Below, piece after piece: positions 3,754-53,211 of a DNA stretch of 64,000 nucleotides. The translations under genes were made by a program, and so were the position numbers. Source of the DNA: an uncultured bacterium (GTDB lineage: Bacteria > Bacteroidota > Ignavibacteria > Kapaibacteriales > UBA2268); contig OW818654.1 of NCBI GenBank assembly GCA_942492935.1, positions 3,587,918-3,651,917 of the forward strand, in the 5' to 3' direction. Positions within the stretch are counted from its first letter, which is position 1. The number at the start of each line of letters is the position of its first letter. The notes below the pieces were generated by a model. It had not been told where the DNA came from, ran no database searches, and saw nothing but the letters and a program-made list of their open reading frames with translations.

Positions 3754-4311
3754 TAACTTTACTGCATATTTATTGAAATATTCCTAATTTCCTCCAAAAG
3801 TAACCATTAAAAAATAAAAATAATCCTAAATCCCAAGTCGAGCGTTAAAACACCTGCAATTTGGCATTAATTATGTAATTTATATTTGTCGATATATAAT
3901 TTAATTGAAAGGCGAATTGAAGTAATTCAATAATGAAAACGCTATAACACAAGACACAACAACTTTGAACAAACGAAATCCTCCAATTTTGAGAATATTT
4001 TTGAAATGAGAACTAAAATCTATGAGTAAAACTATCAATTTTTTTAATACAAAGTCAAAAAAACAACAAAATGCTTATATTTATTCTTTGGTAATTATTA
4101 ATTTTAAAAATATTTTTTTTGAAGAATGAATATAAAATCCCCGCTTTTGTTTCCAATGATATAGTGCTTATAATCAATGTTTTATAAGCTTATACCTATT
4201 ATTACCACGCAATTCACAAATGAAGCCGATAACATTTGAATATTTATCGGCATGTTCTCTGGTGAAGAAAAAATATTATTAGAACAAAATAATTCAATAA
4301 CAAACTTGGTA

Positions 4312-6906
4312 TTAATTTCTAAAATAAAATCTTGATGACTTAGCAATACGAATATAATGAGAATTTTGAGGCATCTTTACTTCTTCTCTTTTCATATTAT
4401 TTTTTATCTTATTTCGCAATTTAACGGTTTTTATATAATCAGAATTTTCATATCTTAAAATTTTACTTCTTATTTCAAATGCTTTTTCTATGTAAAATTT
4501 TGCTTTCTCATAGGATCCGGTTTGAAAAAGTGTTTCAGCAAAATTATAATAAGATAATGCTAAATCCGGATTATATTTATCTAAAGTTTTTTCCTTTATT
4601 TTAATTGCATCTATATTGTACTTATTAGAAAAATTATATTCTTTCAATTGAGCATAAGCAAAAGCGATGTTTGTATAATTTGCTGCTATTAAAATTTGAT
4701 TTTCTTCCGAAAAAACTAGATTACTATCTAATGCTTTGAAGAAATAGTTTAAAGATTTAGTATAATTACCAATACTTAAATAGGAAATTCCAATTTCATT
4801 ATATATAGCAGCTAAATGTGTTTTTGGTCTGTCCACTGATGTGATCAATATATCTAATTCACCGAAATTATTTGTAATAGTTTCCCAATTATCAGGTAAT
4901 TTTTTATATATTTCAGCAATTTTCAAGTAAACTGAATCCAAATCTGATTTTTGTTTATCCAATACATTTTCTAATATTTTTATTTCTTCTAAATAATTAT
5001 TTATTGCTAAAGATGACGATTCTAAAATAATATATAAGGAAGCAATATCATTATACGTTTTGGCAATTTCAATATCAACATCATCATCATTATCTTCATT
5101 ATCTAACAATTTATTATATATTTCCAATGCTTTTAAATAATACTTCAAAGATTTATTATATTCCTTTAAATTTTTATAAATTAAAGCCAATTTATTAAAT
5201 GAGTGTACCAAAGTAATACTACAATTACCAAATACTTCTTGTACTATATCAATTTTTTTTAAACAATATCCTATAGCATTATCATAATAGCCCATATAAT
5301 ATAAAGAATTTACAATATTATCATAAATTTCGACTAAATCAGGATGTTGTTTATTTGAAATTTTCTTTTTGATTGCCAATATTTTTTTTTCAAATAATAT
5401 TGAATTTTCGTAATCTCCAATTAATCTATATGTTGTTGCCAAACTTTTATAAGAATCAGCTAAATCAGGATGTTTTTTCTTTAAAATTTTCTTTCTAATT
5501 TCTAATAATTTCAAATCAAAAATGATTGAATTTTGGTAATCGCCTAAGAATCTATATGTTGTTGCCAAATTTTTATAAGATTCAACTAAATCAGGATGTT
5601 TTTTCTTTAAAATTTTCTTTCTGATTTCTAATAATTTCAAATCAAAATTGATTGAATTTTGGTGATCGTCTAAGAGTCTATATATTGTTGCCAAACTATT
5701 ATATGATTCGGCTAAATCAGGGTGATATTTACTCAAAATATTCTTTCTGATTTCTAATAATTTCAAATCAAACAAAATTGAATTTTGGTAATCGCCAAAA
5801 AGTCTATAAGTTGTTGCCAGACTTTTATAAGATTCGACTAATACAAGATGTTTTTTATATAAGATTTGGTTTCTGATTTCCAATACTTTTAAATCAAAAT
5901 AAATTGAATTTTGGTAATCCCCTAAACATCTATACGAAACAACTATTTTATTGTAAACTTCAACTAATTTTGGATGACATTTATTCAAAACTTTCTCTTT
6001 TATTTGCATTGCTTTTAAAAGAAACTCAAGAGATTTTCGATAATTATTTAATTGTTCATAAAATGAGGCTATCTTTTCATAATACTCTGCTAATTTAAAA
6101 GGATGTTCAACAAACATTTTCTCCTTAGTATTAAAAAACTTTAACTCATATTCTAAACTTTTCTGATAATTGCTGGATTGAAAAAATATTTCTGCCAAAT
6201 TATTCGATAAATCTGCAATTATACAATTTTCAATATCAAAATTTTTTATAATACTTTCTGCAAAGGCAATTAAAATATTTTTTGACTGATTGTCTAAATT
6301 TGAATAATTTTCAATTTGATTTGTTATATTATTAATTAGAATGCTGCAATTCTTTGTATTCGGATGCAATTTATTTTGAATAATTTTTTGGATTAATGGA
6401 TTGATATCTAACATATTATCTTCGATTCTAAGCCAGCCCCTTTTTATTAAAGAATTCAATGTTTTTTCAAACTCATTTTTAGTTTCAATAGTTATCGAAA
6501 AATATTTATGTAAATCATTCGAGCTAATTTTGATTGAGGGTAATATTGAGAAATAAAGAAGATACTGTTTTTCAATATCAATTAAAGACCTATATTCAAG
6601 CATCTTGCAAATATATTTGAAAATCTTCGTTTCTTTACTCTTAAAAAATATTTTTTCTTCAATATCAAAGGAAGGGTTTTCAGCTTTTTCATTGCATACT
6701 TTAATAGTTAATTCATCTAACTTCATCTGAAATTTTGATTTATCCTTAATCCTTTGAAAATTGATATCATCGAATAGCAATACTATAAGATTCTCATGAT
6801 TATAAGTACTAAACTGATTGATATTTGAATTAATTTCATCAAATAAATTGCAATTATCATTATTTGAAATTAATTTTATTGTTTCACTATTATTATTTGA
6901 TTCCAT
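4312..6906 (-). CDS. Tetratricopeptide (TPR_12-like) repeat protein, 864 aa, with N-terminal non-TPR domain
   Basis: About 14 consecutive ~42-aa repeats of form HPDLxxSYxxLAxxYRxxGDYxNSIxFDLKLLEIRKKIL. The N-terminal 280 aa has an hhhhDD motif (NLIVLLFDDINF) and an LPxxxK…FP-like segment reminiscent of the NB-ARC Walker B and winged helix, but no P-loop. Confidence 0.6.
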   Translation of the reverse strand: MESNNNSETIKLISNNDNCNLFDEINSNINQFSTYNHENLIVLLFDDINFQRIKDKSKFQMKLDELTIKVCNEKAENPSFDIEEKIFFKSKETKIFKYICKMLEYRSLIDIEKQYLLYFSILPSIKISSNDLHKYFSITIETKNEFEKTLNSLIKRGWLRIEDNMLDINPLIQKIIQNKLHPNTKNCSILINNITNQIENYSNLDNQSKNILIAFAESIIKNFDIENCIIADLSNNLAEIFFQSSNYQKSLEYELKFFNTKEKMFVEHPFKLAEYYEKIASFYEQLNNYRKSLEFLLKAMQIKEKVLNKCHPKLVEVYNKIVVSYRCLGDYQNSIYFDLKVLEIRNQILYKKHLVLVESYKSLATTYRLFGDYQNSILFDLKLLEIRKNILSKYHPDLAESYNSLATIYRLLDDHQNSINFDLKLLEIRKKILKKKHPDLVESYKNLATTYRFLGDYQNSIIFDLKLLEIRKKILKKKHPDLADSYKSLATTYRLIGDYENSILFEKKILAIKKKISNKQHPDLVEIYDNIVNSLYYMGYYDNAIGYCLKKIDIVQEVFGNCSITLVHSFNKLALIYKNLKEYNKSLKYYLKALEIYNKLLDNEDNDDDVDIEIAKTYNDIASLYIILESSSLAINNYLEEIKILENVLDKQKSDLDSVYLKIAEIYKKLPDNWETITNNFGELDILITSVDRPKTHLAAIYNEIGISYLSIGNYTKSLNYFFKALDSNLVFSEENQILIAANYTNIAFAYAQLKEYNFSNKYNIDAIKIKEKTLDKYNPDLALSYYNFAETLFQTGSYEKAKFYIEKAFEIRSKILRYENSDYIKTVKLRNKIKNNMKREEVKMPQNSHYIRIAKSSRFYFRN

Positions 6907-10343: not shown

Positions 10344-10700
10344 TCAATTAAACAATTTAATTGCTTCTTCTTTAGTTTCGCAAACAGGCATAACAGTACT
10401 TATTTTCAAAATTGATAATAAGTTTGATACCGTTTTATTTGCACCAAATAATACAATCTTAAAATCCTTATTATGCTTTTTTGCAAAGTCTTCGAGATTA
10501 TTATTTACAGTAATTATAGAACCAATACCGGCACTATCAATATAATCAACAGCGGTCAAATCAATTGCAAAAAATAATGACTCTGAAAATTTCTGTTCAA
10601 ATTGCTCTCTGAATGAAGCAAAATGTAAATTAGTGAATTTCGGTTCAAATACTTTAACTAACATAAAATTGTCGTTTTTTTCGAATGATAACTCAATCAT
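10344..10700 (-). CDS. STAS-domain anti-sigma-factor antagonist (SpoIIAA-like)
   Basis: 118 aa single STAS domain with the phosphorylatable DSAG motif (…VDYIDSAGIGSI…). Confidence 0.75.
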   Translation of the reverse strand: MIELSFEKNDNFMLVKVFEPKFTNLHFASFREQFEQKFSESLFFAIDLTAVDYIDSAGIGSIITVNNNLEDFAKKHNKDFKIVLFGANKTVSNLLSILKISTVMPVCETKEEAIKLFN

Positions 10701-23933: not shown

Positions 23934-25142
23934 TTATATTTTAATCTCTTTGTAATTGTCAGTATGCTCCCACTCACTACATAAATTTAAAATGCCTCTG
24001 AATATAGCATAAATATATTCAATATGATTGTATGATAAATTTTGATGAACTGGTAAACCAATTATTGAATTGGCTTGATTATATTTATGTTCAATTTCAA
24101 ATTCGACCAACTTTCGATGATATTTGTCATTCAAATTGTGAGAAAAATAAAAGTATTCGTAAATAAATTGTTCATTTAAAATAGGTAGAATATCTTCAAT
24201 TAAAAAATAGTTTTCAAATTGCAAGTAATTTCTCTTTCTATTTTCAATTGATACACTTAAATTATTGATTTCATTATAAATTGCGTTCAAAACAAATTTG
24301 CGTTTATAAACATCAAGACAATGAAATTTATTCCACATATCAGTATCATTTATTTCAAGATTGACAATTATTGCACCAAATTGAACGGTGAACAAGCGAG
24401 TTAAATCAATGATATATGGCTTATTTTTTTTTGCATTTTTATAATCAAATGTCGAGTTGATTACTTCATATTCTAATAGAGTTAATATAGTTTCAGCAAA
24501 TTGAATATTAGGTACAAATGTTATTTTTGGAGTATCAAATATTTCTTTGAGCAATGTTGTTGATAATTCTTCATTATCAGATGGAATTGTATATAATTGT
24601 GGTACAAATGGTTTATCTGATATTTTAATCACTGATTCGGGTTTATTAAAAATAACTGGATATGAAATTGTCTGCCATTTTTTGAAGAAATTGTAAAGCA
24701 TTTGACGATATGACACGCCAACATCAATATATTTAAATCTACTATCTTTAAAAAAATTCACAGTATGCCACAGCAAATAATCCTGAATTCCTAATGCTTT
24801 ACCTTTGGCATTTCCAGCAAGATTATTCAAAAAAAGATGATTCCCAACCGGCAATAAAATTACAGCGCCAATAGGTTCATTCATTCCATTATATGCAATA
24901 AACATATAATCATCAACACTCAATTGATATGGCATATTTGGGTCATCATAATCATACCACATTGATTTTAATACTTCAATATCTTCTTTTGAACCGATGA
25001 CTTTTTCAATTCTTACATGATTTCTAATGGCTTTTTTAATATTTTTTTGAACAGAGTAAGGAATTAGTTCCCATACTTTATCAGGTTCTAATATCAGACC
25101 ACAGCCATAGTGTACAAAATCTTTACTAATATAATGAGCCAT
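23934..25142 (-). CDS. Hypothetical protein, possible GNAT/FemAB-like acyltransferase fold; last gene of STAS-ABC operon
   Basis: 402 aa. Only 6 bp separate it from the ABC ATPase stop. Weak resemblance of the N-terminal half to FemAB/BioF2-like acetyltransferase. No confident motif. Confidence 0.3.
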   Translation of the reverse strand: MAHYISKDFVHYGCGLILEPDKVWELIPYSVQKNIKKAIRNHVRIEKVIGSKEDIEVLKSMWYDYDDPNMPYQLSVDDYMFIAYNGMNEPIGAVILLPVGNHLFLNNLAGNAKGKALGIQDYLLWHTVNFFKDSRFKYIDVGVSYRQMLYNFFKKWQTISYPVIFNKPESVIKISDKPFVPQLYTIPSDNEELSTTLLKEIFDTPKITFVPNIQFAETILTLLEYEVINSTFDYKNAKKNKPYIIDLTRLFTVQFGAIIVNLEINDTDMWNKFHCLDVYKRKFVLNAIYNEINNLSVSIENRKRNYLQFENYFLIEDILPILNEQFIYEYFYFSHNLNDKYHRKLVEFEIEHKYNQANSIIGLPVHQNLSYNHIEYIYAIFRGILNLCSEWEHTDNYKEIKI

Positions 25143-25148
25143 TTTCTT

Positions 25149-25961
25149 CTAATAATTATTACGAAATTCATTTAGTAATTCGGGAGTTAGTTTTTCGATT
25201 TTTCTGATATTTGCAAATTTATCAAGTAAATCATCAACTGTAAACATACTTTTTTCTTTCTGAGAAATTTCTTCGATAATCTTTCCTTTATGCATCATAA
25301 TAGTTCTATTACCAAGTTCTATTGCCTGTTGCATACTATGAGTAATCATAATAGTAGTAAGGTTATCTTTTTCGATGAACATTTTTGTCAATCTGATAAG
25401 TTGTGCTGCAGATTTAGGGTCTAATGCCGCTGTATGTTCGTCAAGAAGCAATACATCTGGTTTTTGAATCACAGCCATAAGCAAAGTAATTGCCTGCCTC
25501 TGACCTCCTGAGAGAGTACCGATTACATTATTCATTCTATCTTCAAGTTGCATTTCGAGTAATGCAATTTGTTCACGATAAAAAGATTTATGTTTAGTAT
25601 CGAGTGAAATCCATAAATTTCTACTTTTTCCACGCATATAAGCGAGATGAAGATTTTCTGCAATAGTCATTCCTGGAGCTGTGCCAAGGAATGGATTCTG
25701 AAATACTCTTGCAATGTATTTTGCTCTTTTAAAATCAGGTTTTTTTGTTACGTTTTTATCTTTGACAAAAATTTCTCCTTCATCAGGTAGGAATGAACCA
25801 GAAACCGCATTCAATAATGTAGATTTACCGGAGCCATTTGTACCAATAATTGTAATAAAATCGCCTTGTTTAATTTCAAGGTCAATTCCACGAAGAGCAT
25901 AAACTTCGTCAAAAGTTCCTTCATTAAACTTTTTATGCAAATTATTTATCTTAATCATCAT
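25149..25961 (-). CDS. ABC transporter ATP-binding protein (COG1101-like)
   Basis: Walker A GTNGSGKST. Signature LSGGQRQ. Walker B LLLDEHTAALD. 4-nt overlap with the upstream permease gene. Confidence 0.85.
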   Translation of the reverse strand: MMIKINNLHKKFNEGTFDEVYALRGIDLEIKQGDFITIIGTNGSGKSTLLNAVSGSFLPDEGEIFVKDKNVTKKPDFKRAKYIARVFQNPFLGTAPGMTIAENLHLAYMRGKSRNLWISLDTKHKSFYREQIALLEMQLEDRMNNVIGTLSGGQRQAITLLMAVIQKPDVLLLDEHTAALDPKSAAQLIRLTKMFIEKDNLTTIMITHSMQQAIELGNRTIMMHKGKIIEEISQKEKSMFTVDDLLDKFANIRKIEKLTPELLNEFRNNY

Positions 25962-28795
25962 AACTTTGTCCTTATTTTATTAGCTGATTTAAGAACATCA
26001 TCAGGAATACTAATCTTCAATTTATCAGCAAGAGCTTTATTTAAATATATTCTTTTCGGCATAAAGTCATTAATTGGTATTGCTTCTGGTTTCTCGCCTT
26101 GCAATACTCTTTTGAAAATATTTGCCACTTCAGCACCAACTTCTTGATAATCGGCACCGATTGTTAAAAATGCACCAAAATCTACATCAGAAAAATTGTT
26201 GGTATAATAAAGAATACCCTTGTCCGCCAATATTTTTGCAACGGATTCTGTAGCAAGCATTACTGTAACATCTCCCGAAGTTAAGAAAATTTCAACTCCC
26301 TTGTCGGCAACTGATTTAACTGCTTCGACTACTTCATTTGGATTTGATGCATTTGCTTCAATTAGTTTGAAACCATATTGTTTAGCAAATATTCTTGCTT
26401 TTTTTGTACATGCTTCTGAGTTAGCTTCAGATGGGTTCCAAACTATTCCGATTGATTTAGCTTTGGGCGATATCTCTCTCATTAATTTTATTGTAGCTTC
26501 AATAGGTTGAAATGTTGAAATTCCTGTTATATTTTTCTGATGGTCAGTAGTAGTTTTTGCTACACCGGCAACAAATGGGTCAGTAACTGCACCGAAAATA
26601 TGCGGTATCTGTGTATTTGATTTAGCACCCAATTGCAATGCAATTGTTGAAAATGTAACTATATAATCATATTTGCTTCTAACAATATCATTTATAATAG
26701 ATTGACCAATAGAATAATCATTTTGGGCATTTTTATCATCAATTTTCAAATTATATTGTTTAATCATACCTGATTCATTTGCTCGTGCCACAAAGCCATC
26801 TCTGGCTTCTACCAACGCTTTGCTTTCGCTAAACAGAAACAAAGCAATTTTCTTTTGAGGAATAGCATTTGACAAAAATTCTGTTTTTAATGTTTTATCT
26901 AAAATTGAACCATCTTCTTGAACGATATAATTAAAATCTTTAATTGTTTGTGCATCAATTTTAATATTCATTGCTTTAGCAGTTTGAAGATTTATACCTT
27001 TAATCACATAAGTATATTTTTCAAATGGAATATCTTTTGGTTTTTCACCGTTAAATATTCTTTTCATAATATGAGCAGCTTGAATACCACTCGCAGCGTA
27101 ATCGTAACCGTAAGTAGCAAAAGCACCATCTTTTAACCTATCCACATCGGATAAAAATGATGGGATTTTCTTATACAAACTAATTTTTGCGATTGCATCA
27201 AAAGCTGAATAAACTATATTATCAGGAGTAAGCAAAAACGCTTGAATGTCTTTTTCGGCAACTGTTTGTGCTGCTTGCTGCACTTCTGCGGAAGAATTAA
27301 CAGTCATTGCTTGTAATTTAACTTTTCCTTCTTTTGCAACAGCTTTGAGCATCATTTCATAATTGAATACAGAATTTGATTGCCCTGGGTCATATATCAA
27401 ACCAGCTTTCTTAAGATTCGGTACAAATGTTTTTGCTAATTTTAATAAGCTATCTGCTTCCACCCAACCATATACACCAGTTACATTAGGTAGATGGTCT
27501 GTATCACTTTTTCCTGCACCAATAATAAATGGATTAGCAACAGTTGCAAAAATAATTGGAGTGCTTTTTAATTTATTAATAGCAGCTTGAGTTACAGGTG
27601 TGGATATTGCAATTAAAACATCGTAATCGCCTGATTCTATTTCATCAAGAATTTGATTCACAGTCGGAATATCACCGTGGGCATTTCGATAAACAATTTT
27701 TGCATTTCTACCATCAATATAACCGAGCTGTTTAATTTCTTCAAGAGCAGCCAATCTTGTTACATCAAGTAAGCCGTTTTCAGCAAACTGAACGATTGCA
27801 ATTTTATAAACTTTGCCTTGATGAACTTCTTCTTTTTCAGAGCCAAAATAATAGTAAGATAATGAAATAACAGCAATTGAAAATACAGCGAGAATAATAT
27901 ATTTCAAATTCTTACTGAATTGGTGCATTTTCTTTCTATCATTCGATATTTTTGAAACAAATAATGTAAGCAATACAAACAATGATGTCAATAATTTCAA
28001 ATCAATTGGGTTCATTCCTGCGTAAAGTGCGAATGCAATAATCAGACGATAAACTAACGAGCCGATTATTGCACTAAATACCATTACTGCAATAGATTTA
28101 CTTTTGAATACAGTTTCACCGATAATAACTGAGGCAAGTCCAACCATCAATGTACCTATACCCATTTGAATATCTGCAAATCCTTGATATTGTGCTACCA
28201 AACCACCAGCAAGTGCAACAAGTCCATTTGAAATAGCAAGACCAATTATGTATATTAAATCAACATTTACTCCTGTTGCTTTCGACATTTCAGGATTATT
28301 TCCAGTAGAACGAAGTGTTAAGCCAAAATCTGTTTTTAAAAATAAAACTGTTGCGAGCCAAGAAATTGCTGCAAATACTGATAAACAACAAAAATACCAT
28401 ATTTCTTTTGCTAAACCAGGATTAAATGGGTCGAAATAATTGAATACAGTTGGATATTGTAATAATGGTACATTTGATTTTGTCATAATATGCAAATTGA
28501 TTGAATATAATGCAATCATTACCAGAATACCTGCAAGTAATCCCGAAATTCTAAGCCAAGTATATACAATTCCTGTTGCAACTCCAGTAAGCATACCTGC
28601 AAGAAATGCTATCACTAAAGATAAAGATGGGTCTAATCCCATTGTGATTAAAATGGCAGCAACTGCCGCACCGGTTGTAAACGAACCATCAACAGTAATA
28701 TCAGCAAAATTTAAAATTTTATATGTGAGTAAAGCACCAATTGCCATTAATGAGTACAAAATACCCAAATTTAATGCACCAAACCATAGTTCCAT
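25958..28795 (-). CDS. ABC transporter permease (COG4120/BPD_transp_2-like) fused to two tandem ABC_sub_bind (COG2984-type) substrate-binding domains
   Basis: N-terminal ~310 aa polytopic membrane domain. It is followed by two ~300-aa repeats with the PF04392-like pattern (…IVQFAE…LD…G…; …IVWNPSEANS…). 945 aa. Confidence 0.6.
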   Translation of the reverse strand: MELWFGALNLGILYSLMAIGALLTYKILNFADITVDGSFTTGAAVAAILITMGLDPSLSLVIAFLAGMLTGVATGIVYTWLRISGLLAGILVMIALYSINLHIMTKSNVPLLQYPTVFNYFDPFNPGLAKEIWYFCCLSVFAAISWLATVLFLKTDFGLTLRSTGNNPEMSKATGVNVDLIYIIGLAISNGLVALAGGLVAQYQGFADIQMGIGTLMVGLASVIIGETVFKSKSIAVMVFSAIIGSLVYRLIIAFALYAGMNPIDLKLLTSLFVLLTLFVSKISNDRKKMHQFSKNLKYIILAVFSIAVISLSYYYFGSEKEEVHQGKVYKIAIVQFAENGLLDVTRLAALEEIKQLGYIDGRNAKIVYRNAHGDIPTVNQILDEIESGDYDVLIAISTPVTQAAINKLKSTPIIFATVANPFIIGAGKSDTDHLPNVTGVYGWVEADSLLKLAKTFVPNLKKAGLIYDPGQSNSVFNYEMMLKAVAKEGKVKLQAMTVNSSAEVQQAAQTVAEKDIQAFLLTPDNIVYSAFDAIAKISLYKKIPSFLSDVDRLKDGAFATYGYDYAASGIQAAHIMKRIFNGEKPKDIPFEKYTYVIKGINLQTAKAMNIKIDAQTIKDFNYIVQEDGSILDKTLKTEFLSNAIPQKKIALFLFSESKALVEARDGFVARANESGMIKQYNLKIDDKNAQNDYSIGQSIINDIVRSKYDYIVTFSTIALQLGAKSNTQIPHIFGAVTDPFVAGVAKTTTDHQKNITGISTFQPIEATIKLMREISPKAKSIGIVWNPSEANSEACTKKARIFAKQYGFKLIEANASNPNEVVEAVKSVADKGVEIFLTSGDVTVMLATESVAKILADKGILYYTNNFSDVDFGAFLTIGADYQEVGAEVANIFKRVLQGEKPEAIPINDFMPKRIYLNKALADKLKISIPDDVLKSANKIRTKL

Positions 28796-30009
28796 TATTT
28801 ATTCTCCGGAATAATTATACCAGCAAGCATTTTCTTAAAGTTAGACATTCCAAGCAAATGAAATACTCGCATAGGATTTAATTCAGTAGTGATTCTAATT
28901 AATTCTTTATCAAACAAATTCAAATCGTTATTAATAAATCCTCTTTCAAAAACAACCGAATGGAAATGATAATTTGTTGCATTAGGAAGGAATGGTAGTA
29001 ATTCAGGATATTTGCTTTTATCTTTTACAACAATTCCTGTACTAACTACTAAATGATGATTCCATTCTGGCTCCATTGGAAAATTGAACCATTCTGCAAA
29101 ATTTGATTCTGCAAAAATATCGCCTTCTTTCTGAGGTTTGTTTTCCTTCAATGGAACTTTTTTGATATTCATTCCCCATAATCCTTTGCTTTCAAATATC
29201 ATTACAACACAAAAAAGTGGAGCATCAATTATTTCAGTTAATTCTGAAATTAATTTATTCAATTCAGAAAATTCATTTTTCGATTCGGCAAGTATGATTT
29301 GTGAATATTTCCCTGTAAATGCTATTCCATTCAGAAATTGTTTATTATAAGAATTATTCTTTGCAATCATATAATCTACAGTAGGATTTTTGACTGCTGG
29401 ATACCAGAATAAATTATTATTAACAAGTAAAGCATCACCAAAAAACTTATTATAATCAACAAAATTATCCCCAGCTGTTGCAAGTCCAAGCCCATATTCA
29501 TAATTATTAGTATCAATTGTAACTATATCTTTATCAGTATATTCTGATTTTAGAAATGGATTCATGTTGCCAATTGTTTTGAATTTTCCATTTGAATTCT
29601 GATTTAGATTTTTAATTTTAAACTTAATTTCATCTGTTTCTTTAGAAATAATATCTGATAAGGAAACTTGTTTCACATCCTTAGCAGAGATTTCATCTAA
29701 ATTATCTACAAATTGAAAAATTTTCAGAAAGCCAGATATTTTGAAAATTTCTTTGATAGAAGGTGTTACTTTGTAGAATGCCATTTTGCCACCAGCAGAA
29801 TCTAACTCCTTGCGAAAACTCATAAAAACACGAATACCCACACTACTAATGTAATTAACATTAGTAAAGTCGAGTATAAAATTTCTGTTTCCGTCAAGTA
29901 TGGATTTGCTGAAAGAAGCCAGAAGTTCTGCAGATGTAATACCATCAATTCGACCATTTAATTCAACCAAAGTATAATTTTGGTCTTGCTTGTAAATAAA
30001 TTCTAACAT
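28795..30009 (-). CDS. STAS-domain (anti-sigma-factor-antagonist-like) protein fused to a ~290-aa C-terminal domain of unknown function
   Basis: N-terminal 110 aa SpoIIAA-like (…LVELNGRIDG…ILDFTNVNYISSVGIRVF…). No recognisable motifs in the remainder. Its stop overlaps the permease start. Confidence 0.6.
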   Translation of the reverse strand: MLEFIYKQDQNYTLVELNGRIDGITSAELLASFSKSILDGNRNFILDFTNVNYISSVGIRVFMSFRKELDSAGGKMAFYKVTPSIKEIFKISGFLKIFQFVDNLDEISAKDVKQVSLSDIISKETDEIKFKIKNLNQNSNGKFKTIGNMNPFLKSEYTDKDIVTIDTNNYEYGLGLATAGDNFVDYNKFFGDALLVNNNLFWYPAVKNPTVDYMIAKNNSYNKQFLNGIAFTGKYSQIILAESKNEFSELNKLISELTEIIDAPLFCVVMIFESKGLWGMNIKKVPLKENKPQKEGDIFAESNFAEWFNFPMEPEWNHHLVVSTGIVVKDKSKYPELLPFLPNATNYHFHSVVFERGFINNDLNLFDKELIRITTELNPMRVFHLLGMSNFKKMLAGIIIPENK

Positions 30010-30105: not shown

Positions 30106-30876
30106 TTATTTGCTTAATTTTTCTCTTTTTAATATATTTTTTAAACTATCAGGTTGCGAATAATTATTATTGTATAGTGTTGATTCCCATTCACCATACA
30201 TTGGATTTGGAAATACAACAAACTTTTCTAAATACTCATCTAAATTTTCATAAATTAATTCTTTCCCAAACGTTCTACGTTTAGCAAAAATTTCTGAAAA
30301 ATCAATTAAATTATCACCCAACAAAAGAACAATATTATAATTTTCTGAAATTTTATTTCTTCTTTCGGATTTGTCTGATGTAGTAGATTTTAATAGCACA
30401 TAATGACTATCTGCATTTGGGAAATTGTGCTTTTTCAAATTGATTATTGTGGGTAATAATTCCTTTTCTAAACGATTTGAAACATAGAAAACTTCTACCC
30501 CCATAAATTTTGCAAATTCAAGAAATTGAACAGCACCGGGAAGTGGTAATGCTTCAGCTTTATTAACCCATTGATTCCAAGATTCTGGATTATAAGATTG
30601 ATTCTTCAAGATTAACTCAGCTTGATATGGGCTATTGTTTAACACAGTTTCATCAATATCTAATACAATTGCAGGTTTCTTTTGATTTTTAAAATTATAA
30701 TCTTTCAACTTATCTACTAATAGAAACTTTGCATGATTATAAGTTTGTAAATAGCAAAATTCAGCTTCAGCAGATGTTTTAAACCAAGCTACTGCATTTA
30801 CACTTTGTTCTGTTAAGAGATTTTGAGAGAATAATTCAAGATTAATAAGAATTATTAAAAGAAGAATTTTTTTCAT
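30106..30876 (-). CDS. Class B acid phosphatase / 5'-nucleotidase, lipoprotein e(P4) family (HAD superfamily)
   Basis: Signal peptide. Motif IVLDIDETVLNNSPY (DxDET). Confidence 0.75.
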   Translation of the reverse strand: MKKILLLIILINLELFSQNLLTEQSVNAVAWFKTSAEAEFCYLQTYNHAKFLLVDKLKDYNFKNQKKPAIVLDIDETVLNNSPYQAELILKNQSYNPESWNQWVNKAEALPLPGAVQFLEFAKFMGVEVFYVSNRLEKELLPTIINLKKHNFPNADSHYVLLKSTTSDKSERRNKISENYNIVLLLGDNLIDFSEIFAKRRTFGKELIYENLDEYLEKFVVFPNPMYGEWESTLYNNNYSQPDSLKNILKREKLSK

Positions 30877-31201
30877 AATAATTTATCATTTATATCACAT
30901 ATCAATACAAAAATACAAAAAAGCTATTAATATTTCAGCATTTATACTTAATTAAATAATTGAAATTTGTACTTTGTGGAAAAATTGACAATTATTGTAA
31001 CAGTAAAGCCATCAAGAATAAATAGATTAAATGAAATAATTTTCAAATTTCATTGGCTTATTTAATTTGAAACATAATATATTAGCAATTGATAATTTTA
31101 AACATTTGAATTTATCTCAATCTACTTATAAATGAATTTCATAAAATGAAATTCACTAAAAGCAGGATGAACCTACTTTTAGTGAATATAGTTTTAAAAA
31201 A

Positions 31202-32800
31202 TTATGATGGATTTGATTTGTCTTTTAATGCTGAAAGGATGTCAACACCTGTTGCATTTTCAATCATTTCAGAAAGGGAAATTACTGAACCGGGCAGTTG
31301 ATTTACTAATTTACTTAAACCGGTTTGCTCGCCGGAATTACCGTTTTCAATAACAGAAATTTTATCAATTTTGATATTTTTAACAACCCCAGTAAGCATT
31401 TCGGTAATTTGAGGGAGCATATTAAGCATAAATATTTTATTGCCTTCACCATTTGCAGATAGATACGCTTGAATTTTGCGGAGCAAAATTTCAATTTCTG
31501 CATTACCATCAGCAATAATACTTGCAGCTTCACCTTTTGCTTTTAATTCCATAGCTTCCTTTTCAGCTTTTGCAGGTTCAATCACATCAGCCATAAGTCG
31601 CTTTTGTTGCAATTTAATACGTTCTTCTTCGAGTTCCTGTTCGAATAAAACTTTTGCTTTTTGTCCAGCCACTTCTGCTTCTTTTTCTTTAATAATCGCA
31701 ACTTTTTCAAGTTCTGCTTTCTTTACTCTATAAGAATTATTTTCAATTTCAACATTAGTATTTGCTTTAGCGTTTGTAACTTTTACATTTTGTTCTGATT
31801 CAATTTGAGCTTGTTTAATATTTTGTTCTGCAACTGCTCTTGCTTTTTCAGACCTTTCCTTTGCAACAGCTTCAGCTTCTTGTGTAGCAGCTACTCTATT
31901 AGCATTTGCAATAGCAATATTTTGTTCAGTTTCAATTTGAGCTTTCTCAATTTCTTGTTTAGCTTTAGCTTTAGCTTTTTCTGCCCTTTCAAGTGAAAGT
32001 GATTCAGCTTCATGAGTGGTTGCTGTTTTATTAGCATTTGCAACAGCAATATTTTGTTCGGTTTCAATTTGAGCTCGTTGAATTTCCAATTTAACTAATG
32101 CTTTTGCTTTTTCAGCTCTTTGCGTTGCGAGTGCTTCTGTTTCTTCAGCTTGGGCTTTGCTATCAGCTTCGGCAATTCTTGCTCTTGTAATAACTTCTGC
32201 AGTTTTTACACGACCAATCGAATTCAGATAATCACTTTCATCAGAAATATTTGTGATTTTCAAAGTATCAAGAAGTAATCCTAATTTGTTCAAATCAGTT
32301 TCAGCTTCTTCCATCAACGACTCTGCAAATTTAAGTCTGTCTTCGTTCACTTCTTCAGGTGTAAGAGTAGCAAGAATACCACGAAGGTTACCTTCCAGCG
32401 TGTCTTTTGCAATTTGATGAATTTCACCTTCTGTTCTGTTTAAAAATCTTTCAACTGCATTTCCAAAACTTGGCTCAGTAGAATTAATTTTGATATTTGC
32501 AATTGCCTGAACAGCCAAAGGAATTCCTCCTTTTGAATAAGCATTTGCGATTGATAATTCAATAGGTATAGTATTTAATGACATACGTGCCGCTTTTTCG
32601 AGCAAAGGTATTTTCAAAGCCCTGCCGCCTCTTATCATTCTATAACCTACAATTTCACCATTGTTAGTTTTACGTTTTCTTCCAGATAATACGATAACTT
32701 CATTTGGTTGGGCAATTAAAAGTAATCTGCTAATAGTAATTATTATAACAACAATTGCTAATGCACCAATACCAGCTAATGCAAGAATAAAATCTTCCAT
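31202..32800 (-). CDS. Flotillin-like SPFH/band-7 protein (YqiK/FloT-like) with triplicated coiled-coil repeat
   Basis: N-terminal TM plus SPFH domain. Three ~40-aa repeats (EKAKA..QEIEKAQIETEQNIAIANAN…TQEAE). Gene order NfeD-flotillin. Confidence 0.75.
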   Translation of the reverse strand: MEDFILALAGIGALAIVVIIITISRLLLIAQPNEVIVLSGRKRKTNNGEIVGYRMIRGGRALKIPLLEKAARMSLNTIPIELSIANAYSKGGIPLAVQAIANIKINSTEPSFGNAVERFLNRTEGEIHQIAKDTLEGNLRGILATLTPEEVNEDRLKFAESLMEEAETDLNKLGLLLDTLKITNISDESDYLNSIGRVKTAEVITRARIAEADSKAQAEETEALATQRAEKAKALVKLEIQRAQIETEQNIAVANANKTATTHEAESLSLERAEKAKAKAKQEIEKAQIETEQNIAIANANRVAATQEAEAVAKERSEKARAVAEQNIKQAQIESEQNVKVTNAKANTNVEIENNSYRVKKAELEKVAIIKEKEAEVAGQKAKVLFEQELEEERIKLQQKRLMADVIEPAKAEKEAMELKAKGEAASIIADGNAEIEILLRKIQAYLSANGEGNKIFMLNMLPQITEMLTGVVKNIKIDKISVIENGNSGEQTGLSKLVNQLPGSVISLSEMIENATGVDILSALKDKSNPS

Positions 32801-32823
32801 GTTAAACTCCTTGTATAAAAAAT

Positions 32824-33456
32824 TTATAAGTCATTTTTTTCTATATATGCCATATTATTAATTATTTCTAAAACTAATACTTCCTCGCCTCTCTTTAAAT
32901 AATCGTATTCAGAATTTTCTGCAATAAGTGCTTGTATTTCAAAATATTGACCACGGCTTTCAAGTAATAATTTGCCCGGTTTGTTTTTTGAAACTGGTAT
33001 TACAACTTTACCGATTCTTCCTTCGAGTAATTTAATAGAACTATCAGTTCCTGTTTCAGAATTTTTCAGATATTTCATAAACTGATACCCAAATCCTGCT
33101 GAAAATCCACCCATTACAAAAGACACCAAACCCGTTAAGATACTACCAAAATGTAAAAAATTCAGTACAGTACCAGTTAGACCAAAAAATGTAAGAAAGA
33201 AAATAATATTTCTAAAGCTGAAAAACTTAATTGCATCAGTAATGTGAGCTGAATTGTCTGAAAAATCTGTTGTGTGTTCTGCTGAATGCTCGAAGGAATG
33301 TGTTGTAATTTCATTTGTGGAGTCTATATCACCAAAATTATGGTCTGAATCAAAATCATGGTCAACATCACTATCTGTATCCGATGAACCACTAAAAAGT
33401 GAGACTGAAAGCAAAATTCCACCAAAAATTAAACAAGCAAGATAAATTGTCAGCAT
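32824..33456 (-). CDS. NfeD-family membrane protein (YqiJ-like) with C-terminal OB-fold
   Basis: TM helices. Acidic D/H-rich loop. C-terminal OB-fold-like segment (…GRIGKVVIPV…GKLLL..RGQYFEIQAL…). Immediately upstream of flotillin. Confidence 0.6.
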   Translation of the reverse strand: MLTIYLACLIFGGILLSVSLFSGSSDTDSDVDHDFDSDHNFGDIDSTNEITTHSFEHSAEHTTDFSDNSAHITDAIKFFSFRNIIFFLTFFGLTGTVLNFLHFGSILTGLVSFVMGGFSAGFGYQFMKYLKNSETGTDSSIKLLEGRIGKVVIPVSKNKPGKLLLESRGQYFEIQALIAENSEYDYLKRGEEVLVLEIINNMAYIEKNDL

Positions 33457-48096: not shown

Positions 48097-50271
48097 ATGA
48101 ATTCTTACTCTCTCGGTATAAGTGGTAATTGGTTTCTGGTAGTTTTGCTTGTTTTGATTGCAGTTGGGATTTCATTCTGGACGTATCGCAGAACTGTTCC
48201 TGAAATTCCATTAAATAAAAAGATATTATTAATTTCATTTAGAATTATTGCAATATTTTTACTGTTATTTGCTCTTTTTGAGCCGGTTCTTACTATGATT
48301 ACAGGTAAGAGTTTGCCACCGGGAATAGTTTTTCTATTTGATAATTCAGTATCATCTTCACTAAAAGATGCAAAAACTGATAGAAAGCAAGATTATCAAA
48401 GTATTATAAATAATATTGATTTTGAAAAAAATAAAGAAAATTCAAAATACAATTTATTTGATGAAACTGTAGTTCAATTGAATGATTTTTCTTTCGATTC
48501 ATTGAATTTTAAAGGACAATTAACAGATATTTCAAAAGCAATTAATTTTGCATCGGTTGATGCTGAAAAATCAAATCTTAAAGCAGTAGTTTTGTTAACT
48601 GATGGTGCTTTTAATACTGGTAGCAATCCTTTATATTCTGCTGAACTACTTGGCAAACCAATTTATGTGGTTGGATTAGGGGACTCTTCATTTCCAAAAG
48701 ATTTATCTGTTCAAAGTATAATTACTAATGAAATTGCTTATATAAATAATCCTGTTCCTGTAAATGTAAATGTTAGAATTTCAGGTTATGAATCTGGCGA
48801 AGCAAAACTAACAATTTCAGATAATAATAAGAAAATTTCTGAACAGAATATTTTTATAAATCCTGATATCAATGATTATTCTGCTGTCATAGATTATTTG
48901 CCAACAGAAGAGGGAATTCGAAAAATTACCGCCACAATTTCAAAAGCAGATGAGGAAATTACAGAAAAAAATAATTCAGCTTCAGAATTTATTAAAGTAT
49001 TAAAAAACAAAAGAAAAATTGCTTTGTTTGCAGGAAGTCCAAGTGCGGATGTTGGTTTTGTGAAACAAGTATTAGCTAAAGAAGAAGGTATTGAAATTGC
49101 AGAATACATTCAGCAAGTTGGTGCTAAATTCTATAATGAACCAAATGCAAGTTTGTTAAATGATGCTGAATTTTTTGTACTTATAGGATTTCCTATTAAT
49201 ACTACTCCACAAAATGTACTAAATTTAATTGCAAAAGAGCTTGAAAGGGGAAAATCTATTCTTTTTATTGCAGGGCAACAAACTGATTATGCTAAATTAA
49301 AATCTTTAGAACAATATTTGCCATTTAATACAGCTTCTTCTTCACCACAGGAATTTTTAGCTACATTAGATGTTAGCCCTCAATCATTATCAAGTTCTTT
49401 GTTAAGAGTTACAGGTACTGATGCGGATATTGATTATTGGAATAATTTGCCTCCTTTGTTTAGAACAGAAACATTTGTGAGAACAAAACCAGAAAGTGAT
49501 TTCGTTGCTGGTTTCAAAGTGAATAATGTAGTTCTGAAAGAACCAATGATATTGACACGCGATTTTCAAAATAAAAAATCTGTAGCTTTCCTTGGATATG
49601 GCTTATATCGCTGGAAATTACTTGGTTATGCTCAGGATATGTCCAAAGGTAGAACAGAAACTCCTGATTTATTCAGTATATTAGTTGCAAATTCATTCAA
49701 ATGGCTTTCCATAAATGAAAAGCTAAAGAATGTAATTATCAAAACAAATAAGAAAATTTATGCAAGTTATGAAAAAGTGGAATTCATAGCATCTGTTTAT
49801 GATGCGGCATATACACCTTTAGATAATTGTGATTTAATTGTAAATTTAAAATCTGGTAACGAAAGCCGTGATATTCCATTGGTGAATATTGGAAATGGTA
49901 GATATACAGGTATAATTGAAGGATTAGAATCTGGGGATTATAATTTTAGTGGAACTGCAAAATACAAAGACAGAGTTATCGGAACTGATAATGGAAGATT
50001 CAATATTGGTGATTTGTCCGCTGAATATCAAAATCTGCAAATGAATATTGGGTTGCTGAAAGAACTTGCTATTAGAACAGGCGGTAAATTTTATACAAAA
50101 GACAATGTTTCTCAATTAATAAATGATATTAATTCTCATAAAAAATTCAAAACAAAAGATGTTACTGTTAAAAGTGAATTTGGAATATGGAATATTTGGT
50201 GGGTTTTGGCTATAGCATTACTTTTGTTTTCATTAGAATGGGTAATTAGAAAAAGAGCGGGGATGATTTAA
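48097..50271 (+). CDS. VWA-domain membrane protein with BatA-like N-terminal double-TM anchor and C-terminal TM helix
   Basis: N-terminal two TM helices. MIDAS-like FLFDNSVSSS. LLTDGAFNTG motif. C-terminal IWNIWWVLAIALLLF. Its stop overlaps the next gene start (TAATG). Confidence 0.55.
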   Translation: MNSYSLGISGNWFLVVLLVLIAVGISFWTYRRTVPEIPLNKKILLISFRIIAIFLLLFALFEPVLTMITGKSLPPGIVFLFDNSVSSSLKDAKTDRKQDYQSIINNIDFEKNKENSKYNLFDETVVQLNDFSFDSLNFKGQLTDISKAINFASVDAEKSNLKAVVLLTDGAFNTGSNPLYSAELLGKPIYVVGLGDSSFPKDLSVQSIITNEIAYINNPVPVNVNVRISGYESGEAKLTISDNNKKISEQNIFINPDINDYSAVIDYLPTEEGIRKITATISKADEEITEKNNSASEFIKVLKNKRKIALFAGSPSADVGFVKQVLAKEEGIEIAEYIQQVGAKFYNEPNASLLNDAEFFVLIGFPINTTPQNVLNLIAKELERGKSILFIAGQQTDYAKLKSLEQYLPFNTASSSPQEFLATLDVSPQSLSSSLLRVTGTDADIDYWNNLPPLFRTETFVRTKPESDFVAGFKVNNVVLKEPMILTRDFQNKKSVAFLGYGLYRWKLLGYAQDMSKGRTETPDLFSILVANSFKWLSINEKLKNVIIKTNKKIYASYEKVEFIASVYDAAYTPLDNCDLIVNLKSGNESRDIPLVNIGNGRYTGIIEGLESGDYNFSGTAKYKDRVIGTDNGRFNIGDLSAEYQNLQMNIGLLKELAIRTGGKFYTKDNVSQLINDINSHKKFKTKDVTVKSEFGIWNIWWVLAIALLLFSLEWVIRKRAGMI

Positions 50272-52280
50272 TGATGAAAAAAATAATATATATATCATTT
50301 TTTGTAATTGTATTCAATAGCTTATTGTTGGCAGATTTGAGAGATTCTCTCTTTAATGCAACAGGTGAAAGAAGATTGGAATTATTAAACAATTTGTCAT
50401 CTCAACATACACTTGGTTCGCCACGTGAAGCATTGAACTATGCCACAGAAGCTATTAAACTTGCAACAGATTTAAAAGATACTCTTGCACTTGCAAAAGC
50501 ATATTACAATCTGGGAAATTCATATTTTTTTGCTGGATATTACCCTGAATCAAAAAAATCATTTTTGCAATCTGGAACTTATTATTTATCATCAAATAAC
50601 AAAACAGAATATGCCAATGCTATAGTTGAAGCTGCAAAAAAAGCAACAATTTTAAATCAATTTGAAGAAGCATATAAATTATTTGATGAAGCAATTAAAG
50701 TATTTCAAGAGCAAAAGGAAATTCTTTATAATGTTACCGCATTAATTGAATATAGTAAATCTCTTAGAGCTACTAAAAATTCCAAAGCATTAGAAGTTCT
50801 TGATGAAGCTTTTAAAATTTCTGAAGAAAGAATGAGGGACAAGCAAATTAAGCCATTGATAATTTTTGAAACAGGCAACTATTATTTTGCTTTAGGTGAA
50901 TTTGATTTAGCAATTAAAAAATATTCCGAAGCAAAAGCAATCTATGATAAAATGAAAGATAGACAAAATTCAGCAGAATGTTTGATGAATATTGGTTATG
51001 CTCAAAAAGAACTTGGAAATAATGCAGAAGCCCAACAAAAATTTATACAAGCTCTTCCTATGTATGAAAATCCAAAAGATAGAGAAGGACTTAGATTAGT
51101 ATATGATAATTTATATAGAATTGAATACGAGAATGGGAATTATAAGGAAGCTATCAAATATCTTGAAAAACATACTGAAATACTAAAAGAATATTACAGC
51201 ATGAATGTTTTTAGAGCCGAATCTCAAAAAAAATTAGAAAGGGAATCTAATAACAGAGAAAAATATGAAATGCAAAGTCGTCAGCAAGAACTCGAAAAGC
51301 AAAGAGTACTATTAGAAAAAAAAGCAAAAGAAATGCAGCTTTCTACAGAAAGGTCAAGATTAATATCGTTAGCTGTTCTGTTGATTTTACTTGTTGTAGT
51401 AGCATATTTTCTTTTTAAACAGAATAAAATTAAAAAGAAAATCAATATTATGTTAGAGGAAAAAAATCTTGCATTGACTGAGAAAAACATTGAAATTGAA
51501 AATCAGAAAAAGGCAATTCAAGAAAAGAATAATGAGATTCTGGCAGGTATTCGCTATGCAAGTCAAATACAAAATGCAATTTTACCAAATGATGATGAAG
51601 CAGCCCAACTGTTTAAAGAATACTTTATATTTTTCAAGCCAAAAGATATAGTTTCAGGTGATTTTTATTGGTTTTACCAAACCGAAAAAGACATTTTCAT
51701 TACAGTAGCAGATTGCACAGGTCATGGCGTTCCGGGAGCATTTATGTCTTTAATAGGAACGGTTTTTCAAAATGAAATTGTGATTGAAAAGAAAGAAACA
51801 AATCCAGCAAATATTTTGAAATTACTTAATAATGCAGTTCGTGATGCCTTAAAGCAAGACGAGAATGATGCTAATCAAGATGGGATGGATATAGCCGTGT
51901 TAAGAATATCAAAAAATGACAACAAACTTACTTTTGCTGGAGCAAAAAGACCTCTTTATTACTTTGATAATGATAAATTAATTGAAATCAAAGGTGATAA
52001 ATTTTCTATTGGTGGCGTGCAATTGACAGATGTGAATTTCACTGAAATTGAAATCATGCTTAAAAAAGACATGAAATTCTATCTCACAACTGATGGATTT
52101 GCTGACCAAAATAATTCTCAAAACAAAAAGTATAATACAAAGCAATTAAAATTATTCCTTGAAAAAATTCATAACGAAAAAATGGCAACACAATTGAAAA
52201 TGATTGAAGATGAATTTAATTCATTCAAAGGTGATGAACCACAGAGAGACGATGTAACAATTCTTGGATTCAAGATTTAA
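50271..52280 (+). CDS. Transmembrane sensor PP2C-type Ser/Thr phosphatase (signal peptide + TPR repeats + TM + coiled coil + SpoIIE/PP2C domain)
   Basis: TPR-like repeats (AKAYYNLGNSYF…). TM LISLAVLLILLVVVAYFLF. PP2C motifs ADCTGHGVPGAFMS and TTDGFADQ. Confidence 0.75.
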   Translation: MMKKIIYISFFVIVFNSLLLADLRDSLFNATGERRLELLNNLSSQHTLGSPREALNYATEAIKLATDLKDTLALAKAYYNLGNSYFFAGYYPESKKSFLQSGTYYLSSNNKTEYANAIVEAAKKATILNQFEEAYKLFDEAIKVFQEQKEILYNVTALIEYSKSLRATKNSKALEVLDEAFKISEERMRDKQIKPLIIFETGNYYFALGEFDLAIKKYSEAKAIYDKMKDRQNSAECLMNIGYAQKELGNNAEAQQKFIQALPMYENPKDREGLRLVYDNLYRIEYENGNYKEAIKYLEKHTEILKEYYSMNVFRAESQKKLERESNNREKYEMQSRQQELEKQRVLLEKKAKEMQLSTERSRLISLAVLLILLVVVAYFLFKQNKIKKKINIMLEEKNLALTEKNIEIENQKKAIQEKNNEILAGIRYASQIQNAILPNDDEAAQLFKEYFIFFKPKDIVSGDFYWFYQTEKDIFITVADCTGHGVPGAFMSLIGTVFQNEIVIEKKETNPANILKLLNNAVRDALKQDENDANQDGMDIAVLRISKNDNKLTFAGAKRPLYYFDNDKLIEIKGDKFSIGGVQLTDVNFTEIEIMLKKDMKFYLTTDGFADQNNSQNKKYNTKQLKLFLEKIHNEKMATQLKMIEDEFNSFKGDEPQRDDVTILGFKI

Positions 52281-52290
52281 AGAGGCAAAT

Positions 52291-52824: not shown

Positions 52825-52827
52825 ATT

Positions 52828-53199: not shown

Positions 53200-53211
53200 A
53201 AGAATAAAATT

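Follow-up and report, generated by a model that had tools for sequence, protein, structure and literature searches.

A three-gene cassette in an uncultured Ignavibacteria bacterium predicts an ABC importer with two permease-tethered substrate-binding domains and a STAS-fusion accessory protein

The stretch of DNA analysed here, called the window, is 64,000 nucleotides of contig OW818654.1 (positions 3,587,918 to 3,651,917) in the assembly GCA_942492935.1 of an uncultured bacterium of the Ignavibacteria. On its minus strand it carries a gene cassette in which a gene for a 404-amino-acid (aa) STAS fusion protein precedes genes for a permease fused to two substrate-binding domains (SBDs) and for an ATP-binding cassette (ABC) ATPase. 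The 404-aa protein and its family are named STAS-X, and the C-terminal part of the protein is the X domain. Judged from its sequence, the importer is a predicted member of the PF04392/TrpXYZ-related family. The reading favoured here is that the cassette encodes an amino-acid-type importer with tethered SBDs and an MlaB-like, probably phospho-switchable, regulatory subunit in STAS-X, and this reading is given about an even chance of being correct. Only these three genes form the conserved unit. The original prediction had described a four-gene block, but the fourth gene, encoding a 402-aa protein, was found in none of 75 evaluable related loci and its homologs lie in unrelated contexts, and the functional unit is therefore reduced to three genes with the 402-aa gene as a local neighbour. 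The features of the unit, all on the minus strand, are as follows.

28795..30009, minus strand: STAS-X gene, 404 aa, at the head of the cassette (open reading frame, ORF)
29686..30009, minus strand: STAS domain, residues 1-108 of STAS-X
29842..29847, minus strand: Ser55-Ser56, with Ser56 at the position of the phosphorylated Ser58 of SpoIIAA (HMMER alignment)
28798..29658, minus strand: X domain, residues 118-404 of STAS-X, predicted fold like those of alpha-acetolactate decarboxylase (ALDC) and PTD012, no Pfam family
28858..28968, minus strand: near-invariant H348, H350 and H384, candidate metal or ligand site (conservation in 134 representatives)
25958..28795, minus strand: permease fused to two SBDs, 945 aa (ORF, Pfam, homologs)
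27944..28795, minus strand: permease core, residues 1-284, BPD_transp_2 (Pfam; collinear with unfused permeases)
27842..27898, minus strand: extra anchor transmembrane (TM) helix, residues 300-318 (hydropathy and charge; absent from unfused permeases)
26918..27823, minus strand: SBD1, type A, membrane-proximal (Pfam ABC_sub_bind; PDB 3lkv E 1e-38, 6hni E 1e-36)
25961..26875, minus strand: SBD2, type C, distal (PDB matches; 31% identical to SBD1)
25149..25961, minus strand: ABC ATPase, 270 aa (ORF, Pfam ABC_tran)
25152..25250, minus strand: conserved C-terminal tail of the ATPase, residues 238-270, with a conserved terminal Tyr (PDB alignments, family conservation)

Read from the sequence, the STAS-X and permease genes overlap by 1 bp (TAATG) and the permease and ATPase genes by 4 bp (ATGA), and a 6-bp gap separates the ATPase gene from the 402-aa gene. 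The ORFs and these junctions confirm the predicted run of four co-directional minus-strand genes that overlap or lie no more than 6 bp apart. Together with the Pfam matches, the junctions also bear out that a STAS fusion heads, and is tightly coupled to, an importer with two permease-fused PF04392 SBDs.

A word-indexed search returned 12 full-length relatives of STAS-X, and an exhaustive profile search found far more. At E≤1e-30 the family comprises at least 317 clusters (50% identity), nearly all of 400-430 aa, and a scan of species-representative genomes located at least 544 loci. Gene neighbourhoods were profiled by our own ORF calling and phmmer at 79 of these loci, of which 75 were evaluable; all are from metagenome-assembled genomes (MAGs). 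The 79 loci span Omnitrophota, Aminicenantes, Acidobacteria, Scalindua, Bacteroidota, Verrucomicrobiota, Thermodesulfobacteriota and 'Deltaproteobacteria' (Syntrophobacter, Smithella, Syntrophorhabdus), Ignavibacteria/Kapabacteria/Melioribacter and bins labelled Hyphomicrobiales. At 71 of the 75 evaluable loci the permease gene lies directly downstream of STAS-X (median gap 3 bp), and at one further locus the ATPase gene sits between the two. Of the 55 loci that extend far enough, 46 have the ATPase gene next in order. Among these STAS-X-linked permeases, 64 are fused to SBDs, and the complete fused permeases in the survey carry one (n=11), two (n=41) or three (n=8). All four fused permeases sampled from the permease side, one of them a 1568-aa form with four SBDs, are preceded by a gene for a STAS protein of 404-405 aa and followed by one for an ATPase of 270 aa. 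Single-SBD relatives at ~35% identity keep the cassette gene order. The most distant members have an unfused permease, and their tandem SBDs (2, 3 or 4) are on a protein of their own, encoded just upstream of STAS-X, which then sits between that protein and the unfused permease.

Distant STAS-X-like proteins (22-24% identity, ~460 aa) are encoded at the loci L083 (1697-3076) and L084 (8974-10356), in Verrucomicrobiota and Lentisphaerae. No transporter adjoins either gene, and both follow a group-1 glycosyltransferase gene. Locus L035 has an orphan STAS-X gene after rpoA-rplQ, and the family member P0306 (549 aa) has an additional STAS domain N-terminal to STAS-X.

In Pfam searches the 945-aa protein matches BPD_transp_2 at residues 6-276 (E 9e-29) and contains two ABC_sub_bind (PF04392) stretches (E 6e-101), as had been predicted. 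The permease core aligns at 41-47% identity with unfused permeases. These are 293-313 aa long and terminate in a basic tail on the cytoplasmic side. In the window protein, hydropathy and charge place a K/R-rich cytoplasmic tail or loop at residues 285-299, followed by the extra TM helix at 300-318, and no hydrophobic segment occurs after that helix. Because a single extra helix follows the cytoplasmic loop and no hydrophobic segment comes later, both SBDs are predicted to lie outside the cytoplasmic membrane, and this comparison with unfused permeases agrees with their earlier assignment as extracytoplasmic. It had also been considered that the 945-aa ORF might be a misassembly of two or three genes. 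That explanation can be set aside as practically excluded: the frame is uninterrupted, a defined extra TM helix occupies the junction, and the same collinear architecture of transmembrane domain (TMD) and SBDs, with 2, 3 or 4 SBDs, occurs in 120 listed homologs (40-77% identity) from many samples.

Two SBDs are present in 43 of these 120 best permease homologs, three in 69 and four in 8. When 325 SBDs were compared all-against-all, they fell into three paralog types that occur in a fixed order. Type A is always membrane-proximal, type B is in the middle of 3- and 4-SBD proteins, and type C is distal, with two copies in the 4-SBD forms, giving the architectures A-C (the window protein), A-B-C and A-B-C-C'. 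Across proteins, identity within a type is ~57-62% (type A ~60%, type C 57-61%), higher among the few 4-SBD proteins, and falls to 28-41% between types. Because their order is conserved, these ancient paralogs argue for the maintenance of distinct binding functions, by analogy with SBD1 and SBD2 of GlnPQ.

GlnPQ of Lactococcus lactis is a homodimeric importer with four binding sites and two SBDs of different specificity [PMC8025302]. The window importer resembles it in carrying two non-identical tandem SBDs covalently on the TMD, and it would likewise have four sites. However, the SBDs of GlnP are N-terminal to the TMD and fall in structural sub-cluster F-IV [PMC8025302], whereas those of the window protein are PF04392 domains located C-terminal to a BPD_transp_2 TMD, behind the added TM helix. 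Relatives of the cassette also reach four SBDs per chain, and the cassette encodes a STAS subunit. The window importer is analogous to GlnPQ and is not a member of the GlnPQ family. The cassette has just one gene each for permease and ATPase, so the importer is presumably a homodimer, with four SBDs per complex here and up to eight in relatives.

The SBDs match PDB entries 3lkv, 6hni and 3lft with E values of 1e-23 to 1e-39. Of the three relatives with solved structures, one binds Phe, one Tyr and one Trp, and their specificity is tuned at two positions [PMC6816091; PMC10443332]. These positions are Glu/Tyr in the Tyr binder, Ala/Tyr in the Phe binder and Ala/Gln in the Trp binder [PMC6816091]. 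In the cassette family, the position of CD0873 Glu263 is Asp in 119 of 120 type A domains and a variable small or polar residue in type C, and the Tyr at the CD0873 Tyr279 position is kept almost everywhere; the window protein has Asp/Tyr in SBD1 and Asn/Tyr in SBD2. By analogy with the solved relatives, an amino-acid-like substrate class may reasonably be inferred. Importers of the TrpXYZ/CD0873 type draw on the same three protein families, namely a PF04392 substrate-binding protein (SBP), a BPD_transp_2 permease and a COG1101-type ATPase, and the window permease and ATPase are 41-47% and 46-47% identical, respectively, to those of ordinary three-gene systems. In those systems, however, the SBP is free or a lipoprotein, the permease of ~295 aa is unfused and there is no STAS gene, whereas the window cassette has C-terminal tandem SBDs and a STAS-X gene before the permease. 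At the selectivity position, Glu or Ala in the TrpXYZ/CD0873 type is replaced by Asp in type A of the cassette and by a small or polar residue in type C.

The predicted N-terminal SpoIIAA-like STAS domain of the 404-aa protein is confirmed by a Pfam STAS match at residues 7-106 (E 1.2e-17) and by an NCBIfam match, above cutoff, to the anti-sigma-antagonist superfamily. An AlphaFold2 model of STAS-X, made with 12 homologs, has a predicted local distance difference test (pLDDT) value of 84 and a predicted template-modelling score (pTM) of 0.82, with a disordered linker at residues 109-117. In the HMMER alignment to SpoIIAA chains, Ser56 is matched to Ser in 1th8 and to Ala in 1tid. Conservation was assessed in 134 family representatives with a median identity of 29% to the window protein, and Ser55 and Ser56 are each 99% conserved.

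Two known systems bear on the role of this domain. Thr52 of MlaB lies at the centre of the interface with MlaF [PMC7367683]. STAS-X is likewise a STAS-fold protein co-operonic with an ABC ATPase, and its Ser56 is at the position equivalent to MlaB Thr52. It differs from MlaB, a bare STAS protein of ~97 aa, in the addition of a 290-aa ALDC-like domain and in having a STAS domain closer to RsbV/SpoIIAA. A further difference from MlaFEDB is that kinase and phosphatase genes often adjoin STAS-X cassettes, and Mla is not an SBP-dependent importer. With SpoIIAA and RsbV, STAS-X shares the STAS fold and a conserved phosphorylatable Ser, but it is fused to a second domain and is genetically tied to a transporter, not to a transcription module.

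Partner-switching genes are found around the cassette in part of the family. SpoIIE or HATPase_c_2 genes occur within 9 kb in 18 of the 75 loci, and in 8 of the 75 they are directly upstream and co-directional, several with overlapping stop and start codons. As a control, the density of SpoIIE, HATPase_c_2 and single-domain STAS genes was followed with distance from the cassette. It is 1.32 per 10 kb within 1.5 kb and 0.55-0.68 out to 4.5 kb, and beyond 4.5 kb a single switching gene was found in 283 kb. Given this steep fall, the association with the cassette is positional and not background. On an Aminicenantes chromosome, genes for a single-domain STAS protein, an HATPase_c_2 (RsbW-like) kinase, an NMT1-type binding protein and a dCache-HAMP-SpoIIE phosphatase precede the cassette. 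In two loci of the Ignavibacteria group, L019 (14791-16558) and L028 (14797-16561), SpoIIE and single-domain STAS genes lie in a permease-ATPase stretch of ~4.8 kb, and a second STAS/kinase/SpoIIE set is upstream. One STAS-X family member (P0324, 808 aa) is fused to a kinase-like TCAD9 domain, a further pointer to the switching link.

Proteins of 504-509 aa are encoded directly upstream of STAS-X in three unrelated lineages (L026 7459-8970, L064 7427-8938 and L087 2061-3590). The L087 protein has HATPase_c_2 and a faint GNAT match, and those of L026 and L064 have only a phmmer match to the RsbW-like kinase; they may represent a larger kinase type dedicated to the cassette. A gene for an NMT1-type (PF09084) binding protein recurs in the switching-gene flanks of L009 (5932-6927), L011, L019, L027, L028, L060, L061, L063 and L066. 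In L009 it lies between the kinase and dCache-HAMP-SpoIIE phosphatase genes, a placement that hints at an extracytoplasmic ligand input.

The window itself holds a SiaC-type module on the plus strand (50271-54219), made up of genes for a TPR-SpoIIE phosphatase of 669 aa, a DUF6272 protein of 186 aa, a SiaC-family phosphoprotein of 123 aa and a second SpoIIE phosphatase of 335 aa. A 724-aa ORF that matches no Pfam family (48097-50271) comes before it. This module could be a phosphatase source in trans, but nothing ties it to the cassette. A lone single-domain STAS protein of 118 aa (Pfam STAS, E 1e-8) is encoded at 10344-10700 on the minus strand, with no kinase or phosphatase gene beside it.

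The third gene of the cassette predicts the cognate ATPase that had been expected, on the basis of an ABC_tran match (Pfam, E 1.4e-28) and the conserved gene order. The motifs GTNGSGKST, LSGGQRQ, LLLDEH and THS (Walker A, signature, Walker B and H-loop) are conserved across the family. Of 60 family members, 47 are 270 aa long, and the median identity of 64% is far above the conservation of STAS-X. Alignments to nucleotide-binding domains in the PDB stop at about residues 231-237, and the tail that follows is about as conserved (0.69-0.73) as the core. In MlaF a C-terminal extension of ~25 aa is functional [PMC7367683], and the tail of the window ATPase is no more than compatible with an MlaF-like contact element. 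The idea that STAS-X systems alone have this tail in its entirety was rejected against two STAS-less controls, plasmid-borne relatives with a free SBP, a ~295-aa permease and a 264-aa ATPase, as most of it is common to them. The original suggestion of MlaB-like or partner-switching regulation is consistent, by analogy, with the conserved Ser, the conserved ATPase tail and the presence of nearby switching genes in about one quarter of loci.

The 290-aa C-terminal domain of STAS-X had been called uncharacterised. It indeed has no Pfam family, but two methods find an ALDC/PTD012-like two-sheet fold for it. H348 (97%), H350 (96%), H384 (97%), D212 (99%) and E192 (95%) are conserved in the 134 representatives; position 192 is Asp in the window protein. 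In ALDC, Zn is held by an HxH motif and a third His, together with conserved Glu residues [PMC9090609], and PTD012 (human C11orf54) is called zinc-containing in its PDB title. Judged from these residues, the X domain may plausibly have a site for a metal or ligand. The likeness is in fold only, with no detectable sequence or profile similarity: at E≤10 the X domain has no match among PDB chain sequences, and the ALDC family (PF03306) is not among its matches in Pfam. It also differs from ALDC and PTD012/C11orf54 in being ~50 residues longer, in its fusion to STAS and in a gene context with no link to acetoin metabolism. The X domain is a new ALDC-like domain family without Pfam coverage.

This fold raises the alternative that STAS-X is mainly an enzyme, with the metallo-domain converting the imported compound on the cytoplasmic side by decarboxylation, hydrolysis or isomerisation, and the STAS domain only docking it to the transporter for channelling. 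The nearest folds are a Zn decarboxylase family and PTD012, the HxH...H triad with D212 and E192 resembles a catalytic metal site, and the only local match in an hhalign comparison with ALDC places FG[E/D]192 on the motif of the catalytic Glu62, in an alignment that is not significant overall. The tight gene coupling would also suit 1:1 production with the permease. However, the lack of significant sequence or profile similarity to ALDC counts against an enzyme, which would moreover leave the 99% conserved phospho-site Ser and the recurrent kinases and phosphatases unexplained. Characterised relatives of the SBDs bind aromatic amino acids, which need no conversion on entry. A mainly enzymatic STAS-X is considered unlikely.

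Somewhat further from expectation, and judged distinctly improbable, is a transceptor arrangement, in which STAS-X is a signalling output that reports the state of the transporter to a kinase or anti-sigma-type partner controlling expression or another process, much as classical partner switching does. The partner-switching genes described above would suit such an output, but most cassettes have none adjoining, and the Pfam tables of five cassette loci contain no sigma or anti-sigma family, the wider neighbourhood survey having included no sigma-factor query. The very tight coupling of STAS-X to the permease gene argues instead for a stoichiometric subunit. The enzyme and transceptor alternatives both keep the three-gene unit.

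In the mechanism proposed, for which we infer the homodimer, STAS-ATPase binding, phosphorylation, metal or ligand sensing and the substrate class, the three genes would encode one homodimeric, PF04392/TrpXYZ-related ABC importer. On each permease chain the extra TM helix would tether a type A and a type C SBD outside, giving four capture sites per transporter, and the two types would probably bind amino-acid-like ligands with differing specificity or affinity, as the three solved relatives suggest by analogy. STAS-X would be a dedicated cytoplasmic accessory or regulatory subunit, its STAS domain docking on the ATPase as MlaB does on MlaF, with docking set by the state of Ser56. This residue would be phosphorylated by RsbW-type kinases and dephosphorylated by SpoIIE-type phosphatases, encoded near the cassette in about one quarter of genomes and presumably elsewhere in the window genome. 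The His triad and acidic residues of the X domain may bind a metal and/or a small cytoplasmic molecule, which would couple transport to the internal metabolic state.

Several observations weigh against an MlaB-like, phospho-switchable subunit on an amino-acid importer. MlaB is a bare STAS protein of ~100 aa in a non-canonical lipid transporter and is not an importer subunit. Conservation of Ser could reflect a role at an interface without phosphorylation. Kinase and phosphatase genes are missing within 9 kb in about three quarters of the related loci, and none adjoins the window cassette, where the nearest SpoIIE genes are ~20 kb away in the SiaC-type module. STAS-less relatives share the ATPase tail as far as residue ~253, which leaves a difference from the two controls in the final ~14 residues alone. 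For the X domain, the hhalign comparison of the 134-member family with an ALDC alignment of PDB-verified sequences was not significant (probability 1.9%), and the His spacing is HxH+34, compared with HxH+11 in ALDC. The SBDs score 327.5 bits against a TrpX equivalog cutoff of 390 (NCBIfam) and are not TrpX orthologs, and those of the window deviate from the solved relatives at the selectivity position.

A more far-reaching version of the regulated-importer reading joins all of these elements, and is offered tentatively, as possible and on balance doubtful. It would make the system the first ABC importer under post-translational control by a partner-switching phospho-relay, in which STAS-X gates the ATPase dimer stoichiometrically and is released or engaged through phosphorylation of Ser56. 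The X domain with its His triad would sense a metabolite or metal in the cytoplasm, as a sensor of a new kind, and would impose trans-inhibition, and tethered A-B-C(-C') arrays with up to eight SBDs per transporter would scavenge multiple substrates in diderms.

The single ingredients have precedents, since GlnPQ has tandem SBD fusions, Mla has a STAS subunit and partner switching is itself known, but in the literature searched no description was found of the combination, a STAS-ALDC-like protein tied to an importer of the PF04392 family with one to four ordered, tethered SBDs. To our knowledge, few cases of post-translational control of ABC importers have been described (the regulatory domains of MetNI, ModBC, MalFGK and OpuA), and we know of no STAS-ABC pair that has been studied other than MlaFB. 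The phosphoregulation of MlaFB remains an open question [PMC7367683], and a large multi-phylum family in which a STAS protein with a phospho-site is locked to an importer, often flanked by a kinase and a phosphatase, makes that question directly testable. The original prediction took the permease fusion to be unknown for the ABC_sub_bind family. Neither fused PF04392 systems nor a STAS-ALDC-like protein is described in the literature searched, subscription journals lying outside its coverage, but the fusion is abundant in public metagenomes, with one to four SBDs. It extends SBD-TMD fusion to a second, unrelated ABC importer lineage, with up to four SBDs per chain in three ordered paralog types. 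Every related locus examined is from a MAG or other uncultured assembly, so the absence of a model organism is probably why the system has gone unstudied.

The gene downstream of the cassette is the following.

23934..25142, minus strand: FemX-like GNAT plus DegT-like protein, 402 aa, lineage-specific neighbour (ORF)

The 402-aa protein has no Pfam or NCBIfam family, FemAB and Acetyltransf_6 included, and PF13480 is matched by only 2 of its 84 listed homologs (P0134-P0217). A confident model has two domains, of a FemX-like GNAT and a DegT-like fold. Going by the secondary-structure layout of the model, the GNAT match is placed in the N-terminal half and the DegT-like one in the C-terminal half; the weak GNAT/FemAB resemblance noted previously thus holds for one half and does not cover the other. 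Many residues are invariant in the family, including H102, D140, K280, H366 and R382.

An alternative in which all four genes act together would have the imported amino acid attached to a cell-envelope molecule by the FemX-like/DegT-like enzyme. Only 6 bp separate the ATPase and 402-aa genes, with no terminator-like site between them in a sigma-70 promoter and terminator scan that was uninformative in this AT-rich DNA. Adjacency of the 402-aa gene is kept in the closest relative examined, L092, at 67% STAS-X identity, and in no other. FemX- and MprF-type enzymes are described in the PDB as using aminoacyl-tRNA. The distribution largely refutes such a four-gene system, as the gene is missing from all 75 loci and homologs with 39-57% identity have no transporter nearby, lying instead beside an EPSP_synthase-family gene and an M28 peptidase gene or in a glycan-synthesis cluster, and it is regarded as very improbable. 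The modelled fold and these contexts suggest an envelope- or glycan-modifying enzyme. The best explanation is that the 402-aa gene is co-transcribed with the three-gene importer cassette in the window lineage by happenstance and is unrelated to it in function.

Upstream of the cassette, at 30106-33456 on the minus strand, are genes for a class-B acid phosphatase of 256 aa and an SPFH/Band-7 protein of 532 aa with a long, repetitive middle region rich in Ala, Glu, Lys and Gln. The SPFH gene is in turn directly preceded by one for a membrane protein of 210 aa that matches no Pfam family. Elsewhere in the window, G+C content is markedly low at 4001-6000, at 0.23 compared with ~0.30 for the window as a whole.

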